DNA from: Candidatus Parcubacteria bacterium
Lineage (GTDB): Bacteria; Patescibacteriota; Minisyncoccia; Phycocordibacterales; PALSA-1337
NCBI GenBank assembly: GCA_039799225.1
Contig: JBDLTF010000004.1
Coordinates: forward strand, 8,454 to 72,453
Direction of reading: 5' to 3'
Length of the DNA: 64,000 nt
The translations under genes were made by a program, and so were the position numbers. Below the pieces are notes generated by a model, which searched no databases, had not been told where the DNA came from, and saw nothing but the letters and a program-made list of their open reading frames with translations. Below are positions 23,216 to 49,100 of the stretch, piece after piece (within the stretch, counting starts at the first letter, position 1; every line of letters begins with the position of its first letter).

Positions 23216-23283
23216 AGCGCCCAGATACTGTCCTACAGTGAGTGCTGTTTGACAACGACATACACGACAACAAAAGGAACCCC

Positions 23284-25956
23284 ATGTCCGCGCCTACTAT
23301 GAACCATACGAAAGTATGGATTGACGGAACGAACCTGTGTTGGGAGGGAGAGGTTGATATGTCCGATTTGGCCATTATCATTCCCCTTTCCAACTCAAAA
23401 CTGTATCAGTTCGTCATTGCCCCCCTCCATTTCAACGGAGGAACATCCTCATCACCGAAGATTGGACTCTGCGATATCACCCCGGCGTACTCCATTGTGA
23501 TTGAAAGACTTTTCGGCGTCTACGCGTTGAAAGACGCATCTAGACTGCCGTTGAGCCTATCATTCCAGATGGGAGTCTCGCCGACGATGTACAGAAGCAC
23601 CAAACTCGGTGAGTCAACGAGTGATCAACTGATCTCTCGACAACTGGTCCGAGAAGACCTCCCCGATGAGCGTTTGTGCACTGTCACCTTCGATCCGCGA
23701 AAGTGGGTCGAACAGATGAACGAGCAGAAAGCTCAGGAGGAAGTCCTTCACGAACATCAGGTAAACGAGAAACCTCCCGGTCTGTTCAGATCAATACTAT
23801 CGGGAATCTCGCACGTACTAAACCTTAGTTATACAAACCGTATTACAATCTCACAAACTGAACTCGTCGAGATTGAAAAACAAACTAATGGTCACGTGCC
23901 CGCATCTCCGACAATAACCGAAATCGAAACCAACGGCCACGCATCTGCGGAGGCCACAACAAATCAAACCAAACCAGAAACGACAGACAAACCTACACAG
24001 AAAGAACCGATTGCTATGATAAATTATAAAGTTGAACTGACGGGCGGCACGCTTATCGTAAGCGAGCTCCCCTCAACGGTCGTCGACGTCTCGATCCAAC
24101 TCTTCGATGGAGATACTGCGCTGAGTCAAGAAATCCTCGCAGTAAGCCAACGTGGTGTCATCATCACTGATGGTACACTCAAAGTTGAAGACGTGTTCCA
24201 CAGACTCGACCTCGAAGTGGGGAAAGTTCCGAACACGGTCATCCTCCTCAAGATCACTCCGAAAAGTTCGGATGCATCAGAGGAAATTAAGCCGGTTAAT
24301 CATGTCGTGAACGGAAGCGAGATCATCGACATTCTCACGCCTGTAGCGCAAGCCGCTCCAGCTGTGATGTTCGCTCCTATCCTTGTACCGACTCCAGCTC
24401 CTACACCCACCACCCCTCCGGCTCCTGAACCGTTGCCTGAGGAAAAGGTGTTGGATACACAGCAAGGTCGGCTCAATAAGCTCAAGAACGACCTCAGGAA
24501 CAAGAAACTGATGAGCCAGGTCTTGTTGGTATATCTCGTGGAGATGGCAAACGCCATCGATAGCACCTTGTGCACCCTGCGGGACAAGAAGTTCGCCAAT
24601 AACGAACGTGCTCAGAAACTCCTGCCGGAAGCGGTCGAGACCGCGAAAGCAATCAACTATATCCGTGTTGAAAAATGGGAAAAATGGCCCGAACTCAGCG
24701 ATATCCTTGATGAACTCAATACACGCATCCGCAATCTCGGATGTACGGAAGGTCAACCGGGGGCCGCACTCAAGAACGAGCTCGACCAAATCGCAGAGTC
24801 CGTACACAAAAAGAATTGGAGCTCTGTGACACCAAAAATCCTCGAACAGGCCCTAAATAATGCCAGGGGGCTCATCAAGAAATTGGCTGCGGCTGAGGAT
24901 GAAGTGATCAAGCGGTCCGGAGAGTTGGAAAAAGAACTCGCCGAACAGCGCAAGAAGACTGAGGAACAGGCTGCTGAAACTGCGCGGCTCACCGCGGAAC
25001 TGGAAGAAGCTCGAAATAAGCCGGCTCAAACGCCGTCTCCGAACAGCCCTCCGGCACCGACGGTAGCTGCGCCTGCACAGGCACCAGCTCAGACTGAGAC
25101 CGCAACGGCGGGAGCACCTCCCGCAGGAGCTCCGCCGACAACATCGACGACTCCGAGTTCAGCAAGCAATCCGCTCGTGATCATATTAGCGGTCGTGGCG
25201 GCACTGCTCGCTGTAATGCTCATCGTGAGCCTCATCCAAGATCGTAAGTGGACATCGGACGCGGTACCACCAAATGGCACCGTGGACTCGAGACCTCCGC
25301 TTCCGATGCCGACGACAAATCGGCTGCCTGACTGGGCGAACCCGCGGATACTGGGTTACTACCAGGCACTCGTTGCAGCAGGAGTATTGTCGGGAACGAA
25401 CGTTTCGTCGTCTGGTTCTGTTTCTGCCATGAACAATAGCAGTAACTACATCAACGGCCACAGCTTCGTGAACGGCAATGGGTTCCAGCTCAACTACATG
25501 TTGCCGCCGACGAACCAGCCGACTATCATTGTGACCAATGTTAGTATCACGGTCACGAACGTGACGGCTTACGAGCCTCAACAAAAAGGTTGCACAACAC
25601 CGCCGCAAGCACCGGCATGCGGAGATGGAACACCTCGTCAAAGTTGCATTCCAAGTGGAGCGCAACTCTTGTCCGACGGGAGTTGGGTATTCAAAAGAGA
25701 CCTCAACCCCGGCGAGATGCACGAATACCGTGGGGATCAACAGATGATCCTGTCCGTAGTCTGGGCGAATGCTCCGACTCCGTACTTCACGGTCAAGCAT
25801 CAGCGAGATGACGGGTCATGGGAATCAGAAGACTCAAACTCTGATACGGATACCACGGACTCCACACACCGGTTAGTGCTCGACAGGAATGCTCCTCATT
25901 CAGCACAAATTACCGCGACATGGCGTCCGAGGCACACCGTTCAACGACGAGCATAG
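23284..25956 (+). CDS. large bitopic membrane protein: coiled-coil and Pro-rich N-region, single TM, Ser/Thr/Asn-rich extracellular C-region
   Basis: Start chosen at the ATG after the RBS (the ORF track begins at an upstream alternative start). TM helix PLVIILAVVAALLAVMLIVSLI. PAPTPTTPPAPEP and AQAPAQTETATAGAPPAGAPP low-complexity tracts. Confidence 0.6.
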   Translation: MSAPTMNHTKVWIDGTNLCWEGEVDMSDLAIIIPLSNSKLYQFVIAPLHFNGGTSSSPKIGLCDITPAYSIVIERLFGVYALKDASRLPLSLSFQMGVSPTMYRSTKLGESTSDQLISRQLVREDLPDERLCTVTFDPRKWVEQMNEQKAQEEVLHEHQVNEKPPGLFRSILSGISHVLNLSYTNRITISQTELVEIEKQTNGHVPASPTITEIETNGHASAEATTNQTKPETTDKPTQKEPIAMINYKVELTGGTLIVSELPSTVVDVSIQLFDGDTALSQEILAVSQRGVIITDGTLKVEDVFHRLDLEVGKVPNTVILLKITPKSSDASEEIKPVNHVVNGSEIIDILTPVAQAAPAVMFAPILVPTPAPTPTTPPAPEPLPEEKVLDTQQGRLNKLKNDLRNKKLMSQVLLVYLVEMANAIDSTLCTLRDKKFANNERAQKLLPEAVETAKAINYIRVEKWEKWPELSDILDELNTRIRNLGCTEGQPGAALKNELDQIAESVHKKNWSSVTPKILEQALNNARGLIKKLAAAEDEVIKRSGELEKELAEQRKKTEEQAAETARLTAELEEARNKPAQTPSPNSPPAPTVAAPAQAPAQTETATAGAPPAGAPPTTSTTPSSASNPLVIILAVVAALLAVMLIVSLIQDRKWTSDAVPPNGTVDSRPPLPMPTTNRLPDWANPRILGYYQALVAAGVLSGTNVSSSGSVSAMNNSSNYINGHSFVNGNGFQLNYMLPPTNQPTIIVTNVSITVTNVTAYEPQQKGCTTPPQAPACGDGTPRQSCIPSGAQLLSDGSWVFKRDLNPGEMHEYRGDQQMILSVVWANAPTPYFTVKHQRDDGSWESEDSNSDTDTTDSTHRLVLDRNAPHSAQITATWRPRHTVQRRA

Positions 25957-25969
25957 TGCTCTGAACATT

Positions 25970-26012
25970 CACGCCCCTCACTTATCTACGGATAGGTGAG
26001 GGGCTTTTTTAT
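25970..26012 (+). terminator. rho-independent terminator
   Basis: gcccctcac...gtgaggggc followed by a T-run. Confidence 0.6.
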
Positions 26013-26059
26013 ACCTCAAAAACCCCTCAACTAGGCCTTTATTGGTGATAAGCCTAAAC

Positions 26060-26089
26060 TTGACTTTTGCATATAAAGTGTGCTATAAT
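26060..26089 (+). promoter_or_regulatory. strong sigma70-like promoter TTGACT-N18-TATAAT
   Basis: Very similar in extended sequence to the promoter at 23187..23215. Confidence 0.6.
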
Positions 26090-26211
26090 ATATGCAGAAT
26101 TGTGAAGCTGTATCCGTGTGGATACTCCCCTTTGACAATCGAATACGGTTTCAACAAAACAACACCTGGGTGGCTGAAATGCTGCCCTACAAAGAGAAAG
26201 AAAGATAGTAT

Positions 26212-27246
26212 ATGAAAGAAAGAACCCCTGCACCTCCTTTGAGGTTTCCTAAAACAACGGTAGGCGAGTCTGCTGAGAAAGAGATCCCTTTGAAGAAATT
26301 CAAGGAGACCCCTCTGAACATCCGATTCGTCCACGGAATAGATGTAGGCGCATTGGTAATAAATTTACTGTGCGTCATCTTCCTATTCATTGTTATCCGT
26401 TTCATCCTTGGGAGCGCCCAAGGGATCAGGATTCATCCTGCGCTATTGTTGGCAATTCCATCGATATGCGTGACTGCAATCATAGTGTTCTTCCAGCATC
26501 GCATGTGGATGGTCGCCGACGCTCAGACCGCGGTGAAGTATCTCGACCCGCTTATCAGCGTCATCGACGTGTACTTCCAAGGTTTTCATTTCGTTCCTTG
26601 GTATTCAAAATCCGAGAACGATGTGACAAACTTCCAGAAGCACACCGAGATCAATGCACGACAAGCCGATAATACGGCTATCACATTCCAAACACTGGAC
26701 GGATACGACGTTGCGGTAAATCTCGTTTGTTTCTTCAATAGACGAGAAGAAGAGTCTGCTCTCAAGAAGTCCTTGAAGTACACAATGGAAGGACTCAACA
26801 CGAGAACACGTGCCATGATCGCATCGAGACTCTCTACCTTCGGTGGATTAAACACCTATCAGACTCTTCTTGAAAACAAGGACGGAGTCGCTGAGTGGAT
26901 CTCGGCGATGTTCGGCGGTGAAAATTCAACTTCACCGTATGAAGAAGAGGCTGGGTTACGCATCTTCGATCCGCTCATGGTTTCATTCGACCTGACAGCT
27001 GATTCGAAGAGAATCTATGCGGACAAAGCAAAAGCAGCTGCCTTCACTAGTTCATTCAGAGAACTGGCTGGAGAAGATGCCAAGCTCAATCCAAAAGATG
27101 CTGCCGATGCAGTACAAGTTGCAACTGGCACCGCCACGCGCAATATCAATAGTCACACGCACGAATATGTAGGTATCACCCCAGGAATCACAGTATTCGC
27201 ACCCGGAGGTGGGGACATCGCCGTCGGAACGAGAGGAGGTAAGTGA
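26212..27246 (+). CDS. membrane protein with SPFH/band-7-like domain (tentative)
   Basis: Two N-terminal TM segments, then a region resembling the SPFH core (GFHFVPW, ITFQTLDGYDVAVNLVCFFNR) and an Ala/Lys-rich coiled coil. Confidence 0.4.
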   Translation: MKERTPAPPLRFPKTTVGESAEKEIPLKKFKETPLNIRFVHGIDVGALVINLLCVIFLFIVIRFILGSAQGIRIHPALLLAIPSICVTAIIVFFQHRMWMVADAQTAVKYLDPLISVIDVYFQGFHFVPWYSKSENDVTNFQKHTEINARQADNTAITFQTLDGYDVAVNLVCFFNRREEESALKKSLKYTMEGLNTRTRAMIASRLSTFGGLNTYQTLLENKDGVAEWISAMFGGENSTSPYEEEAGLRIFDPLMVSFDLTADSKRIYADKAKAAAFTSSFRELAGEDAKLNPKDAADAVQVATGTATRNINSHTHEYVGITPGITVFAPGGGDIAVGTRGGK

Positions 27247-27249
27247 GTT

Positions 27250-27735
27250 ATGGCTGAAACAAAAGAAAAAGCAAAAGAAGGCAAGGAAAACAAGGGTGCG
27301 TTGAAGAAGAAGTTATGGATCGTTGGGATACTGGCTGTAATAATTCTCTTCTTGTCATTCCTGTTCACCTCTCCGAGCGTCGAGAATACAGGTGCCCACG
27401 TCAAAGGATTCGTATCCTGTGGCGTCGTCACCGTTGACAATACGCTCAGCGAGAGTATTGAAGTCGGACCAGACGAAGATATCGTCCAACAGAAAGTCAC
27501 TCGCGGCGTCGAATGGGAAAAATTCATCAATGGTCGGCTCGTCAGATATTACCCTGTCGGAAAACCATGGGTAGATGTCATCCCAGACGATCAGATCGGA
27601 GAGATTGAAACCGTTTCGTACCGAGTACGAGGCGACCAGCATGTCACTATGCAGATCGCTTACGCCAAGTTCCCAAAGGGAGCAAAAGTACCACAGGAGT
27701 GGTACCAAGCTGCATTGGCAACTATCGGTAAGTAG
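27250..27735 (+). CDS. membrane-anchored hypothetical protein (161 aa)
   Basis: Lys-rich N-terminus, one TM, beta-rich domain. Probably co-transcribed with 26212..27246 (4-nt gap). Confidence 0.5.
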   Translation: MAETKEKAKEGKENKGALKKKLWIVGILAVIILFLSFLFTSPSVENTGAHVKGFVSCGVVTVDNTLSESIEVGPDEDIVQQKVTRGVEWEKFINGRLVRYYPVGKPWVDVIPDDQIGEIETVSYRVRGDQHVTMQIAYAKFPKGAKVPQEWYQAALATIGK

Positions 27736-27755
27736 CCAAGAAAACACAAAGCCCG

Positions 27756-27786
27756 CGAAGCAATTCGCGGGCTTTTTTCATGGATG
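27756..27786. terminator. bidirectional terminator
   Basis: gcccgcgaa-gcaa-ttcgcgggc followed by a T-run. Serves the convergent genes on both strands. Confidence 0.65.
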
Positions 27787-27804: not shown

Positions 27805-28089
27805 TTACCTTCCTAGTTCTAGAACTGTATTCGATATGACGTAGATAATTCCCCAGGCAGATGTCATGATGAACATGCCAATAATGCCACCAATCATACT
27901 CTTCTTGCCTGCCTCTCGAGATTCATCCTTGCCCCAGACGACCTGGAAAACTCCATAGGTGAACACGACTATAGCAATCGCGAACATTAAGCCAACGACT
28001 GGTTGGATGATGTTCGATATGATGGGATTGAGCACATTGCCGAATGCGTTGGCATCAACCTTTGCATAGGCTGTGGATACGAGATCCAT
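27805..28089 (-). CDS. small two-TM protein, VirB2/TrbC-pilin-like architecture (array member 1 of 5)
   Basis: 94 aa. Two hydrophobic helices separated by a short charged loop (GKDESREAGKK). Confidence 0.45.
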   Translation of the reverse strand: MDLVSTAYAKVDANAFGNVLNPIISNIIQPVVGLMFAIAIVVFTYGVFQVVWGKDESREAGKKSMIGGIIGMFIMTSAWGIIYVISNTVLELGR

Positions 28090-28094
28090 GGAGG

Positions 28095-28454
28095 CTAGTT
28101 GACCTGGTCAGGATACTGAACGCGAGGATACTGGTTGACAGGAGCGGTAGTATCGGTGCGGAAGGTGTTGCTCAAGATGCGTACGAGACCCCAGATAGAC
28201 AAGATGACGAAGAGACCAACGATACCCCAGATAATGCCACCCTGATACTCCTTGCGCTTGTCTTCTGAATTACCACTCATGATGAAGCGGACAACGTTGA
28301 AGATGATCCAAATAACCGCAAAAGCGATAAGAATCTGGATGAAGGTGTTACCAAGATTGGTAAGCTTATAAGTAAGTGTGTTGACGTCGGTGATTGCCTG
28401 GGCAAAAGCGACTGACGGCAAGAAAGAAACGAGGGCTGCTATGATCTTTTTCAT
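28095..28454 (-). CDS. small secreted two-TM protein, VirB2/TrbC-pilin-like architecture (array member 2 of 5)
   Basis: Signal peptide MKKIIAALVSFLPSVAFA. Two TM helices with loop SGNSEDKRKEYQGG. Confidence 0.5.
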   Translation of the reverse strand: MKKIIAALVSFLPSVAFAQAITDVNTLTYKLTNLGNTFIQILIAFAVIWIIFNVVRFIMSGNSEDKRKEYQGGIIWGIVGLFVILSIWGLVRILSNTFRTDTTAPVNQYPRVQYPDQVN

Positions 28455-28565
28455 AATAATGCGTTGATTTATATGGATAACTGATTATAGGTACTATTAT
28501 ATCACAGGAGATTACGTGTCTATGGCCAAATGTGGATTACTCCTGATTACTTTCCTAAGGAAATA

Positions 28566-29006
28566 CTAACGAGGCACTTGATTCAAGCTACCATTTGAAA
28601 GCGGAACCTGGTTGAGGCTACCATTGGATGTTGGGCTTGAACCCCCTCCTGGGAATATATTGGTGAATGAATTCCATCCGGCAGGCCTATTGGTGTCATT
28701 TTGGAGCCCAAAAGTATTCTGGAGGATATTGACGAGACCCCACATAGAGAGGATGACGAAGAAACCGATCAAACTCCACATGACATAAGGTCCAGCCTCT
28801 TTCCTCTCAGCATCGGCCATAATGAAGTATTTGATGACATGATAGACGAACATCACCACGGCAATACCCATCATGAGGACGAGAATCCTATTCGCATAGG
28901 TGATTATGAGATCTATGAGCGAAGCGAGGGTCTTATTCGTTGCCGCGAATGCAACTGTTGGAAGAATACTTGAAACGAAAGTGAAAAGAGCTATTTTTTT
29001 ATTCAT
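28566..29006 (-). CDS. small secreted two-TM protein, VirB2/TrbC-pilin-like architecture (array member 3 of 5)
   Basis: Signal peptide MNKKIALFTFVSSILPTVAFA. Loop ADAERKEAGPY. C-terminal repeat SNGSLNQVP x2. Confidence 0.5.
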   Translation of the reverse strand: MNKKIALFTFVSSILPTVAFAATNKTLASLIDLIITYANRILVLMMGIAVVMFVYHVIKYFIMADAERKEAGPYVMWSLIGFFVILSMWGLVNILQNTFGLQNDTNRPAGWNSFTNIFPGGGSSPTSNGSLNQVPLSNGSLNQVPR

Positions 29007-29020
29007 AAAATTTACATGTA

Positions 29021-29488
29021 TTAATTATTCAAGGCGTTTTGTGCGCTCTGTATAGTACGCTGATCCACGACACCGCTCGCCGACAAGGTGTTAATCACTA
29101 CTTGTATGATGATGCGCGCACCGATCACCACAGCTACTCCTATAATAATCCAGGAAAGCCATCCTTTGAGCCTGTTCATCTCCTCTGGATTACCACGAGC
29201 AAGAATGAATTTTAAGCCCACCCAAATGAGAGCAAGTACAGCAGCGAGAACGACAATATAGCTGAATATTTCGACAAAGCTCTGAATGAGACCACCGACA
29301 GAATCGACTTTAAGCGGATTGGTAAGTTTTACAAACCCTTGACTATTGGTTGGCTGACGATTGACGTCATCAGGTTGTCTATTTACATCATCAGCCGCAA
29401 ACAATGGAGACGGAATAACTACCGAGAGGAGAAGCAGGCTGCCTAAAACCCATCTGACGCACTTATTTTTTATAGTGATAAATTTCAT
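29021..29488 (-). CDS. small secreted two-TM protein, VirB2/TrbC-pilin-like architecture (array member 4 of 5)
   Basis: Start taken at the ATG for MKFITIK (the ORF track extends to 29527). Signal peptide, DDVNRQP x2 repeat, loop ARGNPEEMNRLKGW. Confidence 0.5.
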   Translation of the reverse strand: MKFITIKNKCVRWVLGSLLLLSVVIPSPLFAADDVNRQPDDVNRQPTNSQGFVKLTNPLKVDSVGGLIQSFVEIFSYIVVLAAVLALIWVGLKFILARGNPEEMNRLKGWLSWIIIGVAVVIGARIIIQVVINTLSASGVVDQRTIQSAQNALNN

Positions 29489-29492
29489 AGGT

Positions 29493-29966
29493 TTAAGGAT
29501 TTCCGAGCAGAGTCTTGAACGCCGCATTATCAGTCAACCAACTCAGTATCTGATACACGATGAACCATGCTGATAGCATAATTATAAACCCTGTGAAGAT
29601 TTTCGGAAAGATGGCATGAGCCTTCGTTTTGTTGGCAGGGACACCACTGATGTAGAGCCAGCCAGCCCATGAAAATGCAGCTATCGAAGCGAATACACCA
29701 AGCACCATCATAATATTGATGAGGTGTTGTACCTGAAGCATGATGCCATTGAAATCGCAGGGTACATATTTTGGATCCTTTGCAGTATTCGCACCAGCAG
29801 GACCATCACAGACAACAATCTTGAAGGTTGACTTGGTCGGATCAGAATATGCTGGATTAACTTCGGTCGCAGCATACACTGACAGAGATCCTGTAGTAAT
29901 GAACAAAAAGCCTAGAAATATAACTGCTGCTTTTGAGAGTATGTTCTTCATATTATTTGGTTGCAT
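29493..29966 (-). CDS. small secreted two-TM protein, VirB2/TrbC-pilin-like architecture (array member 5 of 5)
   Basis: Signal peptide ...AVIFLGFLFITTGSLSVYA. Loop GVPANKTKAHAIFPK. Two Cys residues. Confidence 0.5.
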   Translation of the reverse strand: MQPNNMKNILSKAAVIFLGFLFITTGSLSVYAATEVNPAYSDPTKSTFKIVVCDGPAGANTAKDPKYVPCDFNGIMLQVQHLINIMMVLGVFASIAAFSWAGWLYISGVPANKTKAHAIFPKIFTGFIIMLSAWFIVYQILSWLTDNAAFKTLLGNP

Positions 29967-31251
29967 TCTTGAGAATTATATCGTATTCATTCCCGGCATC
30001 TTGAAGAGCCTGTATCATAATCTTGCGTCCGCTCGAAATCGCCTCTGTCATATCAGCGAATATACTTCTCGAAGCTGCAGGATCAGCATCGACCCATGTC
30101 TTACCGATAAGCGCTGCCTGATTGAATATCGTCACATACGGATCTGTAGAACCTCGAGCAATCACATCCCTACGCACTGTTGGAAGGTAGAGAGACTCAT
30201 TCAACTGAGCGAGGTTGTCTGGAGAAGTGAGGATGGACATGACTTGGAACACTGCATTCGGGACCGGTGAAGCTCGGACTATCGAGAATCCATTGAGACG
30301 TGCATACGCAGCTTTGACTCCCCCCGTGCGAATCTGTGGAAGTGGAGCGACATCGAAGTTCAAGTTCGGATTCTTGGTACGAATATCGTTGAGCTCTGAT
30401 GCGAAGCCGAAGTATGTGGCGAGCGTACTCGAAAGGAATGCTGATTTCGAAGGTGGGAGGCCTCTGTTCCAGGAATAGTCAGCATTTGTTGGATCGATGA
30501 ACTTAGTGAAGAATTCGAGCGCTGGAGCAGGATCAGCTGAAGCATTCACTTTGAGTGTACTCTCCGCAAAACCATCCGCATTAACCACGGTCACTGGGTT
30601 GCCGACCTGCATGATGAGCGTGCCGAGTATCTCGCGTGCATTGGTGAGATTGGTGAAATCTCCGAGAGCTATGGCTGTCTTACGAATGTTACCATTTTGA
30701 TCCTTGGTGGTGAGACGCTTATTAAGGCCGGTGAATTCATCCCAGTAGCGCGGATAGGCTGCGATACCTGCAGCGTTGAATGTATCTCTATTCCAATACA
30801 TCATGAGTGGATCTACGGTAAATGGGAGGGCGAGAATGCCATTATCATTGAGATATATACGTGCCTCATCGATATAACTATCGATAAATGTGCGTTGTGG
30901 CAGAGCAGTATATGGGACAAGCGCGAGCTTATCATAGTGCGGCAACAGCATATCGACAGGTATCAAGATGCCATCAGGACCAGTACCACGTGCCAAGGCT
31001 GCAATAAAGTCTTGAGAGAAATTTGAGGTAGTCTTCTGTACATAAGTAACAGAAAGTGGCTGCGCCAGATTGGTGTTTATCTTGGAGACATAGAGATCGA
31101 AAGTGTCCTTAGGAAATGTTCCCCAGATAGTTACTGCCGGTATCGTCTCATCTACTGACGATCCCTTGTAGAGCGCGAATGCAGCGACTCCCCCGATAAG
31201 AAAAAGAATGAACAGTGCGAGGGTAATGAGTTGGAATTTACTTATCTTCAT
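29953..31251 (-). CDS. membrane-anchored extracellular solute-binding protein (family-1-like SBP), no adjacent permease or ATPase
   Basis: N-terminal TM anchor. SBP_bac_1-like blocks (VTIWGTF, GTGPDGILIP, YPRYWDEF). Confidence 0.6.
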   Translation of the reverse strand: MKISKFQLITLALFILFLIGGVAAFALYKGSSVDETIPAVTIWGTFPKDTFDLYVSKINTNLAQPLSVTYVQKTTSNFSQDFIAALARGTGPDGILIPVDMLLPHYDKLALVPYTALPQRTFIDSYIDEARIYLNDNGILALPFTVDPLMMYWNRDTFNAAGIAAYPRYWDEFTGLNKRLTTKDQNGNIRKTAIALGDFTNLTNAREILGTLIMQVGNPVTVVNADGFAESTLKVNASADPAPALEFFTKFIDPTNADYSWNRGLPPSKSAFLSSTLATYFGFASELNDIRTKNPNLNFDVAPLPQIRTGGVKAAYARLNGFSIVRASPVPNAVFQVMSILTSPDNLAQLNESLYLPTVRRDVIARGSTDPYVTIFNQAALIGKTWVDADPAASRSIFADMTEAISSGRKIMIQALQDAGNEYDIILKNATK

Positions 31252-31267
31252 AGTGATGAATGTTTAT

Positions 31268-31783
31268 CTATCGAGCAAATACGAGACCGTAATGGTGATC
31301 TCCGGCATTAAAAGAATCCTCGAACTTGAATCCGTTTTTTACAAAAAGCGCCTGAGCTTTTGCCGCTGATACGAGATTCTGGGGACTCATCGGACTCACC
31401 TCGCTCCAATCGATAACAAGTACTTTGCCACCCGGCTTCAGAATGCGCTTGAGCTCAAGACAGAAATCATCGGGCTTCTCTATCTGAAAGAGCACATTCG
31501 AGGCAATAACGCGGTCAGCAATCGATTCGCGGAGCTTGGTGCCACCAATCTTCTCAGCATTGCCCCAGACAACCTCTATGTTTCTGACACCCTGATTACT
31601 TGCAACTGTACGCAGACGCTCGAGCAAATCCTTCTGAACGTCTACAGCATACACACGACCACTCGAACCAACTCTCTTGGCGGCTTCTATACTATAGAAT
31701 CCTGATCCGGCGCCAATATCGACTACCTTCATACCATCGATGAGGCCAACTTTGGCCAGATTTGCAACTGGGTCGGAAAACAT
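31268..31783 (-). CDS. class I SAM-dependent methyltransferase
   Basis: Motif I VVDIGAGSGFYS, motif II VYAVD, post-II VIASNVLF. The ORF-track N-terminal extension overlaps tRNA-Ser, so the start was set at MFSDPV. Confidence 0.7.
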   Translation of the reverse strand: MFSDPVANLAKVGLIDGMKVVDIGAGSGFYSIEAAKRVGSSGRVYAVDVQKDLLERLRTVASNQGVRNIEVVWGNAEKIGGTKLRESIADRVIASNVLFQIEKPDDFCLELKRILKPGGKVLVIDWSEVSPMSPQNLVSAAKAQALFVKNGFKFEDSFNAGDHHYGLVFAR

Positions 31784-31847
31784 AGCCTTATTATACGGCC
31801 AAAATGACCTATCACGAAATAGGGTTTGGGGACAATGATTACTCCTG

Positions 31848-31934
31848 CGGAGGGTAGGAGATTCGAACTCCTGATACCCGTTAAGGTATGCCACCTTTCC
31901 AAGGTGGTGCACTAGACCACTATGCGAACCCTCC
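31848..31934 (-). tRNA. tRNA-Ser(GGA): tRNA-Ser(GGA), type II
   Basis: Reverse complement: acceptor ggagggt/accctcc, anticodon loop uuGGAaa, long variable arm, T-arm ggagt-tcgaatc-tcc. Confidence 0.85.
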
Positions 31935-32015
31935 ATGCAGACGCCACAATACCACGAAACTTCCCTTCTTTCCATTTTTTGAGCGCAGGGAAGGCATATT
32001 TTCTTGAAAACCGTT

Positions 32016-32939
32016 CTACCACCTTCCACTTGATCCGCCGCCGCCAGAGGAACCTCCTCCGAAGCCGCCGAAGCCTCCCGACTTACCACCATGTCCACCG
32101 AGGACCATTGGCCAGAATCCTCCTCCACCGGAGCCTGGCGGTCTCTTAGAAACGATAAAATCAAAAAGGAGGCCGAAGAGAGTGAGGAGTACAATCGCAC
32201 CGATACCTATAGGGAAGAAGCCGGTGAAGATTCCTACGATTCCACCCGCGAGAGCACCAAGAATGCCGCCGAGCCACCACGATTTCGTGGCGCCCAAGAT
32301 ACGACTCAATATATTTATGACAATAATGAAAGCAAAAAATATTCCCTGGAAATTCCAACCCGACGAACCAGTTGATTTTGGTTCCACAGAATATTGCGCT
32401 GCCTCAGGAGAACCACTGATGATTGCCGTCAGTGCATCTACTGCATCAGAAATTCCCTGTCCATACTTTCCTTCTTTGAAAGCCGGCGTCATGACATTCC
32501 TTATGATGTTTCCCGCCTGAATATCAGTCACCGCACCCTCTATACCGTAACCAGTCTCTATACGCATCTGACGATCATTCACTGCTACAAGGAGTAGAAG
32601 TCCGGTATCTGTTTCCTTATTGCCAATCCCCCATTCTTTGAACAATTTTTCAGCATACGACTCAATAGTCTCATCGTCACCAATAGTTGAAATAGTTACA
32701 ACAACAACCTCCGCTCCTGTCGTTTGATTCAAGCTGATCAGTTTCTGACCTATACTCTGAATTTCTTGACTAGAAATGATTCCTGCAAAATCATTCACCA
32801 GACCAGTCGGCTTACCAGGACTTGTGTAGGCGAAAGAGGTAGGGGGAAGAAAGAAGGAGGAAGAAAGAATTGCTACACATACAAAGAAAACCCACGGAAT
32901 AGCGCGGGTCTTCTTCTTACTTCTTACTTCATACTCCAT
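32016..32939 (-). CDS. TPM-domain (TLP18.3/Psb32/MOLO-1-like) protein with C-terminal TM segments and Gly-rich tail
   Basis: LVNDFAGIIS...VVVVTI...LLLVAVNDRQMRIETGYG is typical of the TPM phosphatase domain. GGGSSGGGG tail. Confidence 0.75.
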   Translation of the reverse strand: MEYEVRSKKKTRAIPWVFFVCVAILSSSFFLPPTSFAYTSPGKPTGLVNDFAGIISSQEIQSIGQKLISLNQTTGAEVVVVTISTIGDDETIESYAEKLFKEWGIGNKETDTGLLLLVAVNDRQMRIETGYGIEGAVTDIQAGNIIRNVMTPAFKEGKYGQGISDAVDALTAIISGSPEAAQYSVEPKSTGSSGWNFQGIFFAFIIVINILSRILGATKSWWLGGILGALAGGIVGIFTGFFPIGIGAIVLLTLFGLLFDFIVSKRPPGSGGGGFWPMVLGGHGGKSGGFGGFGGGSSGGGGSSGRW

Positions 32940-34629: not shown

Positions 34630-36369
34630 GTGACCGAAATATCTCAAAAAGAATTCCGTTGGAAGCGCGGACAACGCATCCTCGACTATATCAATCGCTT
34701 CTCATCTACCGAAAAAGCGATATTCGGCTTTTTTTGCATCGCAGGCGTCATCTCTGCGCTCATCATGGCCCAATCCATCAATATCCGATTCTCAACCAAA
34801 GTTCCGGCCCGTGGCGGTTCAATCCATGAAGGTGTCGTCGGCTTGCCACGCAATATAAACCCAATACTCGCCATCACCGATGTAGATCGTGATATCTCAT
34901 CTCTCGTCTATTCTGGCCTTATGAAGTACTCCGACGGAAAACTGGTGACTGACCTCGCTCAATCATACAAAGTATCCGATGACGGACTAGTATACAGCTT
35001 CAAGCTCAAGCCAAATGCATCATTCCACGACGGCAAACCTCTAACTGCTGAAGATATCGCCTTTACCATACAGAAGGTGCAAGACCCTGCACTCAAGAGT
35101 CCTCGCCGTATCGACTGGGCCGACATATCGGTCAAGGTAGTTTCCGCCACCGAGATAGAATTTATCTTGAAGCAATCCTATACACCGTTCCTCTCGAATA
35201 CCACCATAGGTATCTTGCCCAAGCACATCTGGGGCTCAGTGAGCGATGATCAATTCATCTTCAGCCAATACAATACAACTCCAATAGGATCTGGTATCTA
35301 TAAGATATCTTCGGTCTCTCATGATTCTGGAGGTATACCAACATCATATGATCTCGTGTCATGGCGCGGATATTACGGCAAGGCACCTTATATACCTCGT
35401 ATCTCTTTTGAATTCTTCGCCGATGAAGAAGATGCGCTCATCGCTCTCGATCAAGGATATATAGATAGTATTCCTTCACTATCTCCATCCGCTGCTCACA
35501 CTCTCGCGACAAACACAGCTCAAGGATACGATGTACTCTCTGCACCACTCCCACGCATATTCGGCATATTCTTGAACCAGAGCCAGGCACCCATCCTCTC
35601 CGACAAGGTCGTGAGACAGGCTCTCGACATGTCCATAGATCGTACCGCTCTCGTAGAGGCTATCCTCAAAGGATACGGAGCTCCCGTCAACGGTCCAACA
35701 CTCCTTACTATATCTACAAGCACAAATCTCATTGCTGCATCATCGAGCGGTATGGTTTCCGCACAGGCACTCCTCGTCAGGAATGGCTGGAAGCATGGTG
35801 AGGATGGTGTGATGAGTAAGAGACCAAGCAAGTCGACCGCAAGTACAACTATCTCTTTTAATATTTACACTGCAGACAGCCCAGACCTCAAGCAAGCTGC
35901 TGAACTCGTAAAAGAAACATGGAATGCCATGGGCGCTCAAGTCGAGGTCAAGGTCTATGAGCAGAATGACCTCTACCAAAACATTATTCGCACACGCAAA
36001 TATGATGCTTTGCTCTTCGGAGAAGCAATCGGTAAGGACCGCGACTTGTATGCCTTCTGGCATTCATCCCAGCGCAACGCCCCAGGCCTCAATATCGCCA
36101 TGTATGCAAACAGTAAGACCGACAAGATCCTCGAAGATATGCGTACAACGAACGACGATGCTGAGCGAGTAACGAAATATACCCAGTTCGACCAGCTTGT
36201 TCGCGCCGACATCCCTGCAATATTCCTCTATGTTCCTGACTTCATCTACGCAGTTCCGAAGTCAGTGAGGGGTATAAACCTCGGATCGATGTCGGCGCCA
36301 GCAGATCGTTGGAGTTCCGTCGGAAACTGGTATATAGAGACCGAACGCGTATGGAATATATTTAATTAA
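34630..36369 (+). CDS. ABC transporter substrate-binding protein, family 5 (peptide/nickel type), N-terminal TM anchor
   Basis: SBP_bac_5-like size and blocks (ARGGSIHEGVVG, YSGLMKY). Confidence 0.8.
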   Translation: MTEISQKEFRWKRGQRILDYINRFSSTEKAIFGFFCIAGVISALIMAQSINIRFSTKVPARGGSIHEGVVGLPRNINPILAITDVDRDISSLVYSGLMKYSDGKLVTDLAQSYKVSDDGLVYSFKLKPNASFHDGKPLTAEDIAFTIQKVQDPALKSPRRIDWADISVKVVSATEIEFILKQSYTPFLSNTTIGILPKHIWGSVSDDQFIFSQYNTTPIGSGIYKISSVSHDSGGIPTSYDLVSWRGYYGKAPYIPRISFEFFADEEDALIALDQGYIDSIPSLSPSAAHTLATNTAQGYDVLSAPLPRIFGIFLNQSQAPILSDKVVRQALDMSIDRTALVEAILKGYGAPVNGPTLLTISTSTNLIAASSSGMVSAQALLVRNGWKHGEDGVMSKRPSKSTASTTISFNIYTADSPDLKQAAELVKETWNAMGAQVEVKVYEQNDLYQNIIRTRKYDALLFGEAIGKDRDLYAFWHSSQRNAPGLNIAMYANSKTDKILEDMRTTNDDAERVTKYTQFDQLVRADIPAIFLYVPDFIYAVPKSVRGINLGSMSAPADRWSSVGNWYIETERVWNIFN

Positions 36370-38520: not shown

Positions 38521-39975
38521 CTACAATCCCTGCAATGGATTTATCATAGTACGCTGAATCTTCTCTGCATTCGCCATTGCGCTAGTACCGTAGTTCAAAA
38601 TCCATCCTGAAGCTGGACATGCTTTGCCGGAGAAGTATTTACATGCCGCATTGCGTTCAGCCGTATAGGTCTGCCCTCCCGCTCCATTATCTTTTAGAAG
38701 CATCGATGCTGCCATAAATGCATGTTCTGGACTCCATGGATTGGGCATAGATGATATTCCAAGGGCAGCTCTCAAACGATTTACATACAGCACCCAGGTA
38801 GAAGGTATAAACTGAGCTGGACCCATAGCACCACCCCAACCAATTGGCGCACCACTATTATCATATACTGGCTGCCAACACGAAACACGAGTCGTATTTG
38901 GATCTCCATTGAGAGCCTCCACAATATTCAAGAATGGAGGCACATCACGCGTGGGATGCATGACGCGAGACTGAATACTTCCTGTATTTGCCCCACGACC
39001 ATTTCCTGTCGTTGGGTCTGTCATGTAGCACGATCCGATCTGTTTACCAAAAGTTGCATCACTACCCAAACTTGATTCCTGGGCGAATATACCGAGAAGG
39101 AATGCTGCTCTAACACCTGTCTTTCCCTCTGCCTCAAGTGCATATCGATATGCATCGCCGAATGGAATCGCTTGCCCTCCACCAGCAAGAGGAAAGAGTG
39201 CTGCACGTATCTGTGCGGCTTGTGCGGCCTTTTGTGCTATCAATGTCGAGTACTCCTTCTCATTCAACTTACTGATTGTCAGAAGGTTCTGCTTCTCTTT
39301 CTCATCAGCTTGAATATTCTTCTGCTCCTGCTGGATGGCATAGCGTGCATCCGTCTCTGTATTGCGACGCTTCTCAAGACTGCTTTTCTCTGCTTGAGTT
39401 TCAGATTTGTCCGACCTGATTTGCTCGAATGTAGACTTGAGACTCTCTTGGACAGAAGCGAGTGTGTCGAGGTCCTTCAAAGCTCCAGAGACACTCAACT
39501 GTGACAAGAGCACCTCTGGCAGGCTGTATGAGCCCGTCTCATTGGTTTTGCGCATGATGACTGCCAAGGTATCTTTGCCACGCTCAATACGTCCATCGAG
39601 CGTATTGATATGACTCTCTTTGCTCTTGATATCCTTTCCAAGACTCTCGATAAGGAGATTCTTGGCCTTGATATTGAGCTGAGCAACCTTGATCTTGGCA
39701 TCAAGAACGGCAATATCTCTCTGGAGTGACGAGCTCTGTGCTTGAGTAGTCAACAGAGCTGCCTCAGCCTGCTTCTTTTCAGCCTCGACCTGTACAAGAT
39801 CCTTCTCGAGCTTAGCTTTCTGCGCAGGGGTTAATTCTTGGGCCAATACGGAAGGAATCGTCAGGGGAATGAACAGAGAAAAAACTGGGGAAAGCATAGC
39901 TATCCCGACAATAAGAAAAACAGTATATTTGGGCATGTATCGGACAGTATTCATGTAGTTCTTATAGTATAGCAA
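38521..39975 (-). CDS. cell-wall hydrolase: N-terminal coiled coil plus C-terminal lytic transglycosylase (MltB/SLT-like) domain
   Basis: Signal/TM, long Lys/Glu/Gln-rich coiled coil, then FLLGIFAQESSLG...GAMGPAQFIPSTW, typical of the lytic transglycosylase fold. Confidence 0.6.
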   Translation of the reverse strand: MLYYKNYMNTVRYMPKYTVFLIVGIAMLSPVFSLFIPLTIPSVLAQELTPAQKAKLEKDLVQVEAEKKQAEAALLTTQAQSSSLQRDIAVLDAKIKVAQLNIKAKNLLIESLGKDIKSKESHINTLDGRIERGKDTLAVIMRKTNETGSYSLPEVLLSQLSVSGALKDLDTLASVQESLKSTFEQIRSDKSETQAEKSSLEKRRNTETDARYAIQQEQKNIQADEKEKQNLLTISKLNEKEYSTLIAQKAAQAAQIRAALFPLAGGGQAIPFGDAYRYALEAEGKTGVRAAFLLGIFAQESSLGSDATFGKQIGSCYMTDPTTGNGRGANTGSIQSRVMHPTRDVPPFLNIVEALNGDPNTTRVSCWQPVYDNSGAPIGWGGAMGPAQFIPSTWVLYVNRLRAALGISSMPNPWSPEHAFMAASMLLKDNGAGGQTYTAERNAACKYFSGKACPASGWILNYGTSAMANAEKIQRTMINPLQGL

Positions 39976-40742: not shown

Positions 40743-41555
40743 CTATGGGCTTTGTATTGATTTGTTATAGATAGCAAACCTATCTAGGTACCCTCTGAGT
40801 CCGATTGAACCGAAGCCTCCGATATAAAGAGGTGCACTACCTGTCCACGTAAGCATGGGACTATTTGAATAAGCATCCTTCTTGCCATCAATATAAATTA
40901 CCCATTTCTCACTTGCGGAATTCGACCAAGATATGAGAACGTGAGACCATTGGTTTAATGGCAATGATTTTGTTGATGCTATAACGATAGAATCACCGAA
41001 AGCGACATTATTCCCAAGCCGGATTTGGCCGCTACTGCTGAATTGTATCCACCTACTCCCGACAAAACCAATGAGATCATTATCTGCTATTGAGGTGGGA
41101 TACACCCAGAAGGATATACTGCCATTATTCACATCGAATTTTGCTATAGTGTAATCATATGGATTCCTATTACAAGCGGTGCTGGCATTTGAATAAAGTA
41201 CCATACCTAATGATCCAATGTTACCTCCAGTGGTCGAAATCGAACTGACATCTCTAATTTGTGCGCTTGAACACGCAAGAGTCGCTGAATAACTAGCGGT
41301 ATTTGTAAGCGTCACTCCCATTGCAACAGGAGTCGTTGTGGCAGTATTGAAATCAAATAGAGCTACCGCATCCGCTCCCCAAGCTTGATATAAATTCCCT
41401 TCAAATGTCTGTACCGAAGCAATCCTCCCTTTCTCCCTTGCACCATTAAGGCTCACCAACACAACACTCGAGAGCATACCTATGATCGAGATGACCACAA
41501 GAAGCTCAATGAGCGTGAAGCCCTTGTTCCCTCTATGATTTGAGGTGATATTCAT
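40743..41555 (-). CDS. type IV pilin-like protein with C-terminal LamG/concanavalin-like lectin domain
   Basis: Prepilin N-terminus KGFTLIELLVVISIIGMLSSVV (class III signal with the conserved Glu). The C-terminus resembles a LamG domain (ISFWVYP...NDLIGF...IRLGNN). Confidence 0.7.
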   Translation of the reverse strand: MNITSNHRGNKGFTLIELLVVISIIGMLSSVVLVSLNGAREKGRIASVQTFEGNLYQAWGADAVALFDFNTATTTPVAMGVTLTNTASYSATLACSSAQIRDVSSISTTGGNIGSLGMVLYSNASTACNRNPYDYTIAKFDVNNGSISFWVYPTSIADNDLIGFVGSRWIQFSSSGQIRLGNNVAFGDSIVIASTKSLPLNQWSHVLISWSNSASEKWVIYIDGKKDAYSNSPMLTWTGSAPLYIGGFGSIGLRGYLDRFAIYNKSIQSP

Positions 41556-46129: not shown

Positions 46130-49100
46130 TTAGATAAGATAATTCTCAACAACCCAACCTATTATTCCGTTGAAAGTAACATACCACCAATAATAACCTC
46201 CGGCTGAAACACCATTTGAGGCATTTGCAACAATTGTACCTAAGGTACCATCAACAACGGTGCCCAAAACAGTAGCTGTTGCCGACGGAGCAGAGCGGAT
46301 ATTTAAGAATGTTCCTGTTCCAGAAACTCGAACCTGTTGACCAGTAGTGAAAGCACCTTGGCTTTGGGATGACGAGGTTGATGGAACAGTGACCATGGAG
46401 ACGGTAGCTGGGGCTGTAGCACCACTGACGATAGATCCGTAATCATTCGGATAGCATGTTGTTGCGCTGAATGTGCCACTATTATTCAGACTACGTGATT
46501 CCCAACAAAGCTGGGCTGGAGACTTATTAACCTTACCTGCAGCGTCGCCAGTGCCACCAGAAACATCAGGACCAATAAGTGGCCATGGAACTGAAACTGG
46601 GAACCAGGAAGGTTTGGAACTATAAATCATAGAAGCAGGAATTGTCTGGTTTGATGGTACCGCTACATCAGAGGAAACCTCAGAAGCGACGAAACGTGAG
46701 GCATCATTGAAGTAGTCATAGTTACCCCAACGAACCAAGGTAGAGCTAACCTTAGGATCAGGATAGCCGCTAGGAATTGCGTAGTTATCGTACGCAGTAG
46801 TACTACAATTGCTGATGTTTGGGTATCCGAACTGATAAACACCAGGGGCGTTACAGCCAGTAGCATATGCTGCAGGATTCTGTTGTGAAGACCCGAGCAC
46901 GTTACCAACGATGTTGTAGTAGTAGCCGAAGCGCTTGATCCAGACAGCATCTCCCCTTGCAGTCGAACCATTCGGATTGAAGCCGGTGAAATAGTTGCGC
47001 AACAGAGTTCCTTGACCCGCACCACCGAAGTAACCATCCATACCCCACATCTCACCAGTGTTTCCTTCGTAAAGGTTATAAGCATTATACGGAGCATGGC
47101 CATCATCAAAGGTCCAAGTCACCATATATGAACCACCTCCCCAATCGACTGATCCATAAACATAGTTGTAGCCAATATAGAGACCACTGCTACTATTATT
47201 AACTTCAATTGCGGGGAAGTTCTTATTGAAGATATTATTCTCAACCCTCGCATTGCTATTGGCACCGTACGGACCACCGTAGAAGTTGAGACCGCTGTTA
47301 TTAGGTCCTGATGAGCCTTCGTGGATATATGAATCACGAACCTCAAGGTTAACAGTGCCGAGAATAGTGAAGTGGTAGCCGACGCTGCGACCTGATTCGA
47401 TACCCTTCATCCAACAGCTATCACAGTACTGAATGTCCGTGTTGCCGTTTGTAGTGTTGTGTTCAAGCTTGAGATCTTCAATACCGACATTCTTTGTAGT
47501 GCTCAGGAATGTATGTTTGATTTTCGGAGTGCCTTGAGAGAAATCAAAGATGAGCGGATTGCGAACAGTGATGGTATTCCCGCTAATCCCGGTAATGACA
47601 TTAACTTGAGTGAGTGAACGGCCAGCATCGTGACTAGCAACAAAGGTAGGATCATCGAGACGATCGAGCTCGAGCATCAATCCGACAGTGAGACCTGCAG
47701 TCGATGCGACAGTGAAGGACGAAGATCCTTTGGCACCACCTCCGGTAAGTGCTACGCCACTTGTCGAATTGTATCCGCTACCAATCCTAAGAATGTTACC
47801 ACCTGACAGAATAGTCTTGTCTGCTCCCGCACCACGGAGAGTAACATTACTGTTGTAAATCAGGATCTTGTCAGACAAGTTGTATGTGCCGGCATTGAGA
47901 AAGACGACGCCATTGTTACATGAGCTGATAGCACTGTTGATTGTTGCTGCGGTTGCCCCAGGATTGAGTGTGGCACAAATAGTAGTACGGTTTGGGATGC
48001 CTCCAGGAACACCGGTGTATTTCCAGTCGATGGTACGGTTAGCAGCTTGAAGAGAACTCAGAATATTAGTGCCGACAACAATCGTCACCGTCACACTCGC
48101 ACTCTTGCTCGTCGATACATTTCCTGCGGCATCCTTAGCCCAAGCATAGAGAGTCTTGGAGCCTGCGGATGCAAAGGTGTATGTAGTAGGAGCAGCTGAT
48201 GTCCAACCTGTAGCTGATGCTGTTGGTGCTGATGATGACTCGGTAATGAGGTATCCTGTTACACCGACTGCGTCTGTAGCAGTGAGAGTAGTGATAGGAA
48301 CTGTGAGAGATGATGAAGTTGAAGGGATGGTGAAGACTGAGACGACTGGGGCGGTGGTGTCGGAAGTTGGGATGGTGCCACCATAGTAGCAGGCGGACGA
48401 GTCGAATATCCCTCCTCCTGCGAGATTTTGGTTCTCGAAGCATTCTTGTGCAGGAATCTTTCCATTCAAGAGCGTCCCCGGATTGCTTGCGCTCGGACCA
48501 TACGCTGGCCAAGCAAGTCCACTTCTCCACCATGAAGGACGAGATGCTAGATAAAGCGAGTTAGGAATGTTCTTTGATGCATCTATTGTGTCCGGACGCT
48601 CAGCAACGTTCCATCTCACCGTGTTGGTCACAGAATCCCAATTACCCCACCTGAGCAGAGTATTCAAGGTTTGAATGTCATAATTCGATGTCGAAGGCTG
48701 TGCTGCATTCCAATATCCAATCGAATAAATCACATTATCACTTCCTAGATTGGTATTGTTAAACTCATATGTGCTCGTCTTTCCCGTGGTCCCCAGCACA
48801 TTACCGACGACAGTAGTGTTTAGGTGTTGTGCCCAGACATACAGCGCAATCCTGTAGGCAAAAACTGATGTATTTGTCGAATCATATCCATAGAGCCTAT
48901 TCCTCAATATAACCTCGTTACCTCCAGAACCCCAGCCGTTGTCCAACGAGATCGAGGTAAGAGCATTCCCTTCGTACAGGTTCGAATATGTGTGTCCGAC
49001 ATGAGGCTGTGCTCCAGCAGCCATAACGTTAGGCTCCGACTGCGGGTCGATGTAGTTATACGAGATCACTGAGCCGCTAACTGGAGTAGTCGGAACGATC

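Follow-up and report, generated by a model that had tools for sequence, protein, structure and literature searches.

A tandem array of five pilin-like genes behind a carbohydrate-type solute-binding protein in a Candidatus Parcubacteria genome

Gene content of the array

The DNA analysed here (the window) is a stretch of 64,000 nucleotides from a metagenome-assembled genome of Candidatus Parcubacteria bacterium (GCA_039799225.1, contig JBDLTF010000004.1, positions 8,454 to 72,453). It contains a tandem array of five small genes whose products resemble the pilins of type IV secretion systems (T4SSs), preceded directly by a gene for a solute-binding protein. An earlier note, made from the sequence alone, had described five consecutive minus-strand genes of 94 to 168 amino acids at 27805-29966, and all five open reading frames (ORFs) were found there. 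We named them A to E in order of transcription, i.e. by descending coordinates on the minus strand.

29953..31251, minus strand: solute-binding protein, carbohydrate/oligosaccharide type, with a hydrophobic anchor or signal peptide at its N-terminus
29493..29966, minus strand: subunit A, pilin-like, 157 amino acids, or 152 amino acids from Met6
29021..29488, minus strand: subunit B, pilin-like, 155 amino acids from Met14; the ORF reaches 29527 (168 amino acids)
28566..29006, minus strand: subunit C, pilin-like, 146 amino acids
28095..28454, minus strand: subunit D, pilin-like, 119 amino acids
27805..28089, minus strand: subunit E, pilin-like, 94 amino acids

The true start of B is most likely the internal Met14 (29488, 155 amino acids). 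The public annotation of this protein (P0001), labelled "Type secretion system pilin" (Candidatus Parcubacteria bacterium, RLY66_395), begins at Met14. The start of A may be Met6 (152 amino acids), as in one public gene call. Inspection of the alternative start codons for Shine-Dalgarno sequences gave no clear motifs.

Hydropathy analysis gave two strong hydrophobic segments in each of the five proteins and an extra N-terminal hydrophobic segment in A-D. On inspection, the N-termini of A-D look like signal peptides and close with AxA-type motifs (VYA-A, LFA-A, AFA-A and AFA-Q, respectively). A signal peptide followed by two hydrophobic helices with a short charged loop between them had been proposed for most of the array, and this description holds for the helices of all five proteins, for the quoted charged loops and for the signal peptides of A-D, but not for E, which has no classical signal peptide and starts with a 9-residue leader (MDLVSTAYA) that is kept in its orthologues of 94-99 amino acids.

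Apart from the hairpin, the five proteins are built differently. In A, the signal peptide is followed by a small extracellular stretch that holds two invariant Cys residues (CDGP...PCDF) and then by the two-helix hairpin; in the alignment of 39 A orthologues, the invariant residues are C53, D54, G55, P56, C70 and F72. B carries a variable N-terminal segment between signal peptide and hairpin and a conserved C-terminal helix behind the hairpin, and its second helix contains an Arg that is invariant in the B-family alignment. C has a low-complexity C-terminal tail after signal peptide and hairpin, D (signal peptide AFA-QA) has a Pro/Gln-rich tail in the same place, and E is a hairpin only, behind its short leader.

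The short internal repeats of B and C had both been assigned to the tails. This is right for SNGSLNQVP x2 (28572-28628), which is situated in the C-terminal tail of C, but DDVNRQP x2 (29351-29392) turned out to lie in B past the signal peptide and ahead of the first helix. For both peptides the copies are exact in the protein, while their DNA is identical at 15/21 (DDVNRQP) and 20/27 (SNGSLNQVP) positions with all differences synonymous, and Tandem Repeats Finder reported no DNA tandem repeat beneath them. The B orthologues have other short repeats at the place of DDVNRQP x2.

Family membership and structure

To assign the proteins, we used the gathering thresholds of two Pfam families, PF18895 (T4SS_pilin, 26.6 bits) and PF04956 (TrbC/VirB2, 27.9 bits). 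It turned out that B (50.0 bits), D (45.2 bits), E (39.4 bits) and C (32.8 bits) pass PF18895, while A alone reaches 20.2 bits and stays under the threshold. Among the orthologues of A, 35 of 39 match PF18895 at E<=0.01 (best E 1e-10), and hhalign aligned the A family with the B family over 76 columns (93.6% probability, E 2e-7). Therefore all five genes form one family, in which A is, judged by its sequence, a divergent PF18895 member. For PF04956, B passes with 33.3 bits, E (16.8 bits) and D (14.5 bits) are below, and C and A gave no match. The VirB2/TrbC-pilin-like character that the earlier note had recognised is thus borne out.

Hidden Markov models (HMMs) built from the five orthologue families match just A-E among the six-frame ORFs of at least 50 amino acids in the window, so that the signal is specific and far above chance. 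The best NCBIfam matches for four of the five proteins are the NF045849 and pLS20_p028 families, aligned over nearly the full model length, with scores of 19.6-32.3 bits, all under the 40-bit cut-off. For D, 5471 cluster representatives were found at E<=1e-3 among 1.84 billion proteins. In the AlphaFold2 (AF2) model of B, the hairpin is formed by helices 64-96 and 101-137 (predicted local distance difference test score, pLDDT, about 90) after a disordered segment.

PF18895 proteins are typical of the chromosomal T4SS in Patescibacteria. VirB2-like tandem arrays have already been described in this group, and the array in the window is an ordinary member of them. McLean et al. (2020; PMC7427843) reported 4-6 small Sec-signal proteins beside VirB4/VirB6 in Saccharibacteria and other members of the candidate phyla radiation. 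Wang et al. (2023; PMC10633639) described six PF18895 genes (SEML1_0014-0019) inside the T4SS cluster (VirB6/VirB4) of Southlakia epibionticum, all six individually essential for epibiotic growth, and the structure-based annotation in the same work matched the fold of one array member to "F1F0 ATP synthase subunit C". The survey of 3,035 genomes by Quinonero-Coronel et al. (2025; PMC12102498) found VirB2-like genes in 1,948 VirB4-positive assemblies, with pilin genes near virB4 in 1135 of these 1948, and counted 441 arrays of 2-11 VirB2-like genes (about 25% within-array identity) in 383 Patescibacteria assemblies; the patescibacterial VirB4 was related to the FATA class of mating pair formation (MPF) systems, MPF-FATA.

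The family assignment also bears on the suggestion that these are small membrane proteins with no part in secretion, for instance of a holin-like or bacteriocin-immunity-like kind, or else secreted effector subunits like those of pertussis toxin. Small proteins with signal peptides would suit this explanation, an analogy with pertussis toxin has been proposed for the TM7x array (PMC7427843), and we did obtain weak matches to Phage_holin_2 (14.2 bits vs a cut-off of 32; E 0.055) and Phage_holin_3_6 (15.4 vs 28.4 bits; E 0.02). However, these holin matches are under their cut-offs and far weaker than those to PF18895, and Pfam scans of the window ORFs found no phage, lysis or bacteriocin genes near the array, which lies in a housekeeping context and is inherited vertically over 41 species (see below). 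Moreover, two strong transmembrane helices per protein make a soluble toxin unlikely, and the similarity to pertussis toxin S1 on which the TM7x analogy draws amounts to 11% identity (PMC7427843). We regard this explanation as very improbable.

Conservation of the five-member set in related genomes

We scanned one genome per species among the relatives and obtained 44 loci, 41 of which are collinear with the window; these 41 belong to Paceibacteria, Taylorbacteria and relatives. In these 41 species-level genomes the shared order is methyltransferase, binding protein, A, B, C, D(-D') and E, and 17 related loci have a second D (D'), as shown by 17 D-to-D gaps. A closer comparison with three relatives showed that the positional orthologues are 48-91% identical to the window proteins, while the window paralogues A-E share only 22-38% pairwise identity. 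The C orthologues are 54-82% identical to the window C, and the D orthologues 70-91%, so that D is the most conserved paralogue. No recent duplication within the arrays was seen except D/D'. Judging from this synteny and these identities, A-E is an old, fixed and non-redundant set of distinct subunits, not a diversifying cassette. A mobile element or island was also considered, and was ruled out by the strict synteny in 41 species, the housekeeping neighbours and the lack of an integrase or relaxase.

Besides separate genes, some related proteins contain several hairpins in one chain. Single polypeptides with 3, 6 or 8 PF18895 domains, up to 820 amino acids long, were found (P0289, P0322, P0241, P0247 and in locus L108), and two three-domain fusions lie inside a binding-protein-linked array (L108, 7600-8604 and 9024-9875). 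Because the hairpins occur fused in single proteins, the paralogues would be expected to co-assemble, which implies that paralogous subunits sit side by side in one assembly. The literature consulted on these arrays gave no mention of fused VirB2-like proteins.

The first position of the array appears specialised. The gene right after the binding protein is usually of a Cys-motif type, with CDGP..PCDF here and PCG..CTLCH elsewhere. In two loci (L093, 7312-10938; L103, 7416-10391), the first pilin-like protein has 1,000-1,200 amino acids with the hairpin at its end, and fn3/He_PIG Ig-like domains and an SLT lytic transglycosylase (VirB1-like) domain stand ahead of the hairpin.

These results speak to the antigenic or functional diversification of a surface filament that the earlier note had read from the five paralogues. 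According to this explanation, the genes would encode interchangeable pilin variants for antigenic or host-range diversification of one homopolymeric filament, as in Bartonella and Anaplasma, an analogy which was raised in the 2025 survey (PMC12102498). It would account for the low identity within the array and for the C-terminal tails and the exposed segment near the N-terminus of B, which vary between species and carry short repeats. In contrast, every position of the array is matched by a conserved orthologue of its own, with the order unchanged, in the 41 species-level genomes and in broader metagenomic arrays, and same-order orthologues together with low paralogue identity argue against antigenic diversification. 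D/D' apart, recent duplications are absent; the architectures differ, e.g. the Cys-bridged domain of A and the E protein without signal peptide; and the fused multi-domain forms imply that the subunits are used simultaneously. Since all six S. epibionticum array genes are individually essential, they are not redundant either (PMC10633639). The diversification idea is therefore not upheld, and we consider it improbable.

The solute-binding protein

The protein encoded directly upstream of A is above threshold for the Pfam families SBP_bac_1 (59.6 bits) and SBP_bac_8 (53.2 bits). Among proteins of solved structure, a manno-oligosaccharide binding protein (4r9f, E 2e-11) is closest to it in sequence, and its AF2 model (pLDDT 67, moderate confidence) resembles oligosaccharide/MalE/UgpB binding proteins in Foldseek (E about 1e-14). 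The stop codon overlaps or abuts the start of A, and in the 41 collinear loci the gene immediately precedes the array on every contig that extends to this point. In the distant locus L049, a binding protein of 30% identity with different flanks is followed by five genes which all pass PF18895. Scanning metagenomes with an alignment of the binding protein yielded 80 loci, and the binding proteins in them share 36-48% identity with the one of L049. Counting the 71 loci with at least 400 nt downstream of the binding protein, we found a pilin-like ORF starting at -60 to +400 nt downstream on the same strand in 70 of them, with 1-9 pilin-like genes per locus. In the metagenomic loci, neither the opposite strand nor the region before the binding protein gave a pilin-like match.

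This gene had been described as a lone binding protein without a permease partner. The second half of the description is correct, as Pfam scans of the 64-kb window found no ABC permease, and no permease pair adjoins the binding protein in about 120 related loci. ORFs of 200-420 amino acids with at least five hydrophobic helices occur in just 13 of about 124 related loci; about one third of them are fused pilin domains (L069, L108, L120, L123), and the one in L007 overlaps an ABC-2 exporter gene called on the same contig. The first half is not, however, since the gene adjoins the arrays of the relatives: the binding protein is the most consistently linked partner of the array and not incidental. 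We found no report of this linkage in the literature searched, which was incomplete, and PMC12102498 does not mention it.

An orphan binding protein beside small membrane proteins could also mean a channel independent of any T4SS, in which the five hairpins (10 helices) would form a fixed heteromeric ring or bundle and serve as its membrane partner in a non-canonical importer of oligosaccharide-like compounds from the host. Such a channel would fit the adjacency of binding protein and array in the collinear loci, L049 and the metagenomic loci, the missing ABC permease in these surroundings, and the lack of a VirB4 nearby. Besides, the proteins with 3-8 fused hairpins are reminiscent of the fused c-ring subunits seen in rotary ATPases, and one array member of S. 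epibionticum has the fold match to F1F0 ATP synthase subunit C noted by Wang et al. Nevertheless, the sole sequence homology is to T4SS pilin families (PF18895, TrbC and, sub-threshold, the NCBIfam pilin-like family), the PF18895 genes of Saccharibacteria lie inside a VirB4/VirB6 cluster with no binding protein, more than half of the Patescibacteria assemblies have pilin genes near virB4, and no energising component is encoded with the module. B does match DctQ, the small subunit of TRAP transporters, at 21.2 bits; this is under the cut-off of 28.3 bits, and we rejected it as probably a likeness of hydrophobic helices only. On balance we hold the channel to be unlikely.

As to the wider surroundings of the binding-protein-plus-pilin unit, an ORF of about 810-830 amino acids lies a few hundred bases upstream of it in many of the loci L052-L128, and in L003 and L005 GyrA takes the position of this ORF. 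This suggests a conserved chromosomal position for the module. In the window there is a second solute-binding protein at 34630-36369 on the plus strand, of the SBP_bac_5 type (peptide/oligopeptide, 218 bits), which is syntenic in L002 and likewise has no permease or ATPase gene in the window.

Operon signals and the upstream methyltransferase

Three further features belong to the conserved block or its borders.

31268..31786, minus strand: class I methyltransferase, about 172 amino acids (Pfam Methyltransf_31/11/25), first gene of the conserved block
28484..28506, minus strand: two motifs resembling -10 promoter elements in the gap of 111 nt ahead of D, TGTGATATAAT (28496-28506) and CTATAAT (28484-28490)
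27748..27775, minus strand: terminator-like hairpin with a 12-bp stem (7 G-C pairs), then a T-rich run

The gaps between the array genes are short, except for 71-149 nt before the D that precedes E, a pattern shared by 39 of 39 related loci. Within this gap, 30 of the 39 loci have an exact TATAAT, and its density is 9.4 per kb there vs 1.3 per kb in the other array gaps. In the window, a consensus promoter scan also marks 28522..28493. These motifs point to a putative internal promoter ahead of the last two genes, D and E. The terminator-like hairpin lies 30 nt past the stop of E and closes the operon.

The methyltransferase had been listed as an ORF of 310 amino acids (31268-32200), which is over-extended: a same-strand tRNA-Ser (GGA) at 31847-31934 lies inside its 5' part. 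In most of the 41 loci, where the sequence suffices, an orthologue of the 172-residue form comes immediately before the binding protein. Because it is missing from the distant L049 module, the methyltransferase is probably a matter of lineage-specific synteny and not a core part.

T4SS machinery and the neighbourhood in the window

Pfam scans found no VirB4, VirD4, VirB6 or relaxase in any sizeable ORF of the 64-kb window, and the absence of the first three that the earlier note had pointed out is confirmed. It doesn't refute a pilin function, because the published survey has pilins near virB4 in only 1135 of 1948 assemblies. With no T4SS ATPase, VirB6 or coupling protein in the window or in the 6-10 kb around about 120 related loci, the link to a T4SS therefore comes from homology and from other lineages. 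In Table S1 of PMC12102498, two Taylorbacteria genomes with the same module (L034 and L036) are marked VirB4-positive, while a third module-bearing genome, with just 206 annotated coding sequences, is marked "No". Two window ORFs, of 904 and 484 amino acids, were tried as hidden VirB4/VirB6 candidates and rejected; neither has a P-loop, and both are coiled-coil proteins.

The window is otherwise ordinary chromosome, with genes for TopA, ParB, MiaA, alanine racemase, ClpB, SMC, NusB, RNase J, L25, aldolase and TGT, and six tRNAs. Convergent with the array, three plus-strand genes at 23242-27735 encode proteins of 904, 344 and 161 amino acids. The first consists of a coiled coil, a Pro-rich linker and one transmembrane segment and has no Pfam match, the second has two N-terminal transmembrane helices and weak Band_7/SPFH similarity, and the third is membrane-anchored. 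Genes of similar size stand in the same order and place in L002, L003 and L005, with sequences that diverge fast.

The protein of 484 amino acids (38521-39975, minus strand) is a secreted coiled-coil protein whose C-terminal motifs "AQESSLG" and "GPAQFIPSTW" are typical of lytic transglycosylases; its match to Pfam SLT_2 has an E of 0.02 only, and from these motifs it could be a divergent cell-wall hydrolase, either VirB1-like or division-related. Two giant predicted surface proteins of 2,340 and 3,380 amino acids are encoded back to back on the minus strand (46130-53152 and 53811-63953), with Laminin_G_3, fn3, bacterial Ig, right-handed beta-helix and SH3_3 domains. Large adhesin-like proteins of such make-up are typical of ultra-small bacteria. 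The product of another minus-strand gene (40743-41555) resembles type IV pilins, with a methylation motif at its N-terminus and a fused Laminin_G_3 domain, and is part of a filament system other than that of the VirB2-like array.

Proposed function

We think it fairly probable that the array encodes a heteromeric, T4SS-dependent pilus or conduit which works with the carbohydrate-type binding protein. Several observations weigh against this. Of the five proteins, B alone passes for the classical TrbC/VirB2 family; when the B model was compared with the PDB in Foldseek, nothing significant came back (best E 2.2); and PDB sequences searched with the B-family profile yielded no solved pilin, just a spurious bromodomain match (E 0.26). 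There is no candidate VirB4 within 10 kb in the 41 collinear loci and no VirB4-like ORF in the 6-kb flanks of the 80 metagenomic loci. Moreover, the universal pairing with a binding protein is without precedent in known T4SSs, and chains of up to 8 fused hairpins (16 helices) are ill-suited to the extraction of single subunits into a long dynamic filament.

For this heteromeric pilus or conduit, the steps could be as follows. The methyltransferase, the binding protein, A, B, C, the internal promoter, D, E and the terminator would make up one transcription unit. Each subunit would be exported or inserted via Sec and would sit in the membrane as a two-helix hairpin with its short charged loop in the cytoplasm. 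A-E would then be put together in a set arrangement, giving a single heteromeric conduit that is pilus-like or spans the envelope, and a VirB4/VirB6 machine from another part of the genome would drive this assembly. The abundant structural subunits would probably be D and perhaps E, because they have the separate promoter and D shows the highest conservation and the duplication. A may be a specialised Cys-bridged subunit, which in other lineages is enlarged with a lytic transglycosylase domain. The binding protein, at the outer face of the membrane, would capture a host-derived glycan-like ligand or aid assembly. The sequences themselves show the family membership, the topology pattern, the fixed orthologous set, the linkage to the binding protein, the lack of an ATPase or permease nearby and the fused forms; the formation of a pilus or conduit, the dependence on VirB4, the roles of the subunits and the class of the ligand are inferred.

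A more far-reaching and rather doubtful idea concerns the lineages outside Saccharibacteria, where the device might be a fixed conduit of T4SS-pilin-derived subunits, with the binding protein feeding host compounds through it. It is suggested by the near-universal linkage, by the lack of an adjacent permease or ATPase, and by the fusions of 3-8 hairpins, which point to a defined oligomer. If true, it would be a previously undescribed uptake system and the missing mechanistic link for the idea of nutrient acquisition via the T4SS pilus. That the pilus might serve for uptake from the host, as a conduit, has been put forward as a speculation in a 2025 review (PMC12857230).

Patescibacteria account for a large part of bacterial diversity, lack most biosynthesis and obtain material from their hosts. 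The T4SS and the pilin array are essential in the one species tested, and outside Saccharibacteria the arrays stand almost always directly behind a dedicated carbohydrate-type binding protein with no transporter partner. This protein and its ligand offer experimenters a handle that is soluble and tractable, and the concrete prediction, a complex of binding protein and pilin, would test the view of the pilus as an uptake conduit.

Comparison with known systems

The closest systems are the PF18895 arrays of Patescibacteria, i.e. SEML1_0014-0019, the "Sec-secreted array" of TM7x and the 441 surveyed arrays. They share with the window the Pfam family, the signal peptide plus hairpin, the 5-6 tandem paralogues with about 25% mutual identity, the chromosomal location and the lack of a relaxase. 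However, the array of the window isn't located beside VirB4/VirB6/PrgI but behind a binding protein in a housekeeping neighbourhood, whereas the T4SS cluster of S. epibionticum contains no such binding protein.

Compared with VirB2 of the Agrobacterium T-pilus, TrbC of RP4 and TraA of F, the proteins are alike in the small precursor, the leader, the two helices and the charged loop, and in the classical family PF04956 not only B passes the cut-off but members from L049 also score up to 41.8 bits. Classical T4SSs have a single major pilin inside the T4SS operon of a diderm cell, which the VirB machinery polymerises together with phospholipid into an extracellular pilus, while here there are five subunits in a monoderm-type cell, away from the ATPase genes. 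The Mollicutes family Mbov_0395 (NF045849), from integrative and conjugative elements, and pLS20_p028 come from monoderm conjugation of the MPF-FATA type, but are single genes on mobile elements. The VirB2 arrays of Bartonella and Anaplasma phagocytophilum also consist of tandem, sequence-divergent copies; they are thought to be lineage-specific and antigenic, whereas the paralogues of the window are old, positionally orthologous and structurally different.

By analogy only, type IV pili and type II pseudopili are similar in having a fixed tandem set of about five subunits with conserved order for one fibre, with a single abundant subunit and others that prime the fibre or form its tip. Their fold, their processing (there is no prepilin peptidase motif here) and their assembly ATPases are unrelated. 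The binding protein, for its part, has the Pfam families and predicted fold of MalE, UgpB and the oligosaccharide-binding proteins of ABC importers, but its constant neighbours are pilin-like genes instead of permease and ATPase genes. In conclusion, what appear to be new in comparison with the described arrays are the fixed set, the binding-protein partner, the internal promoter and the fused hairpins.

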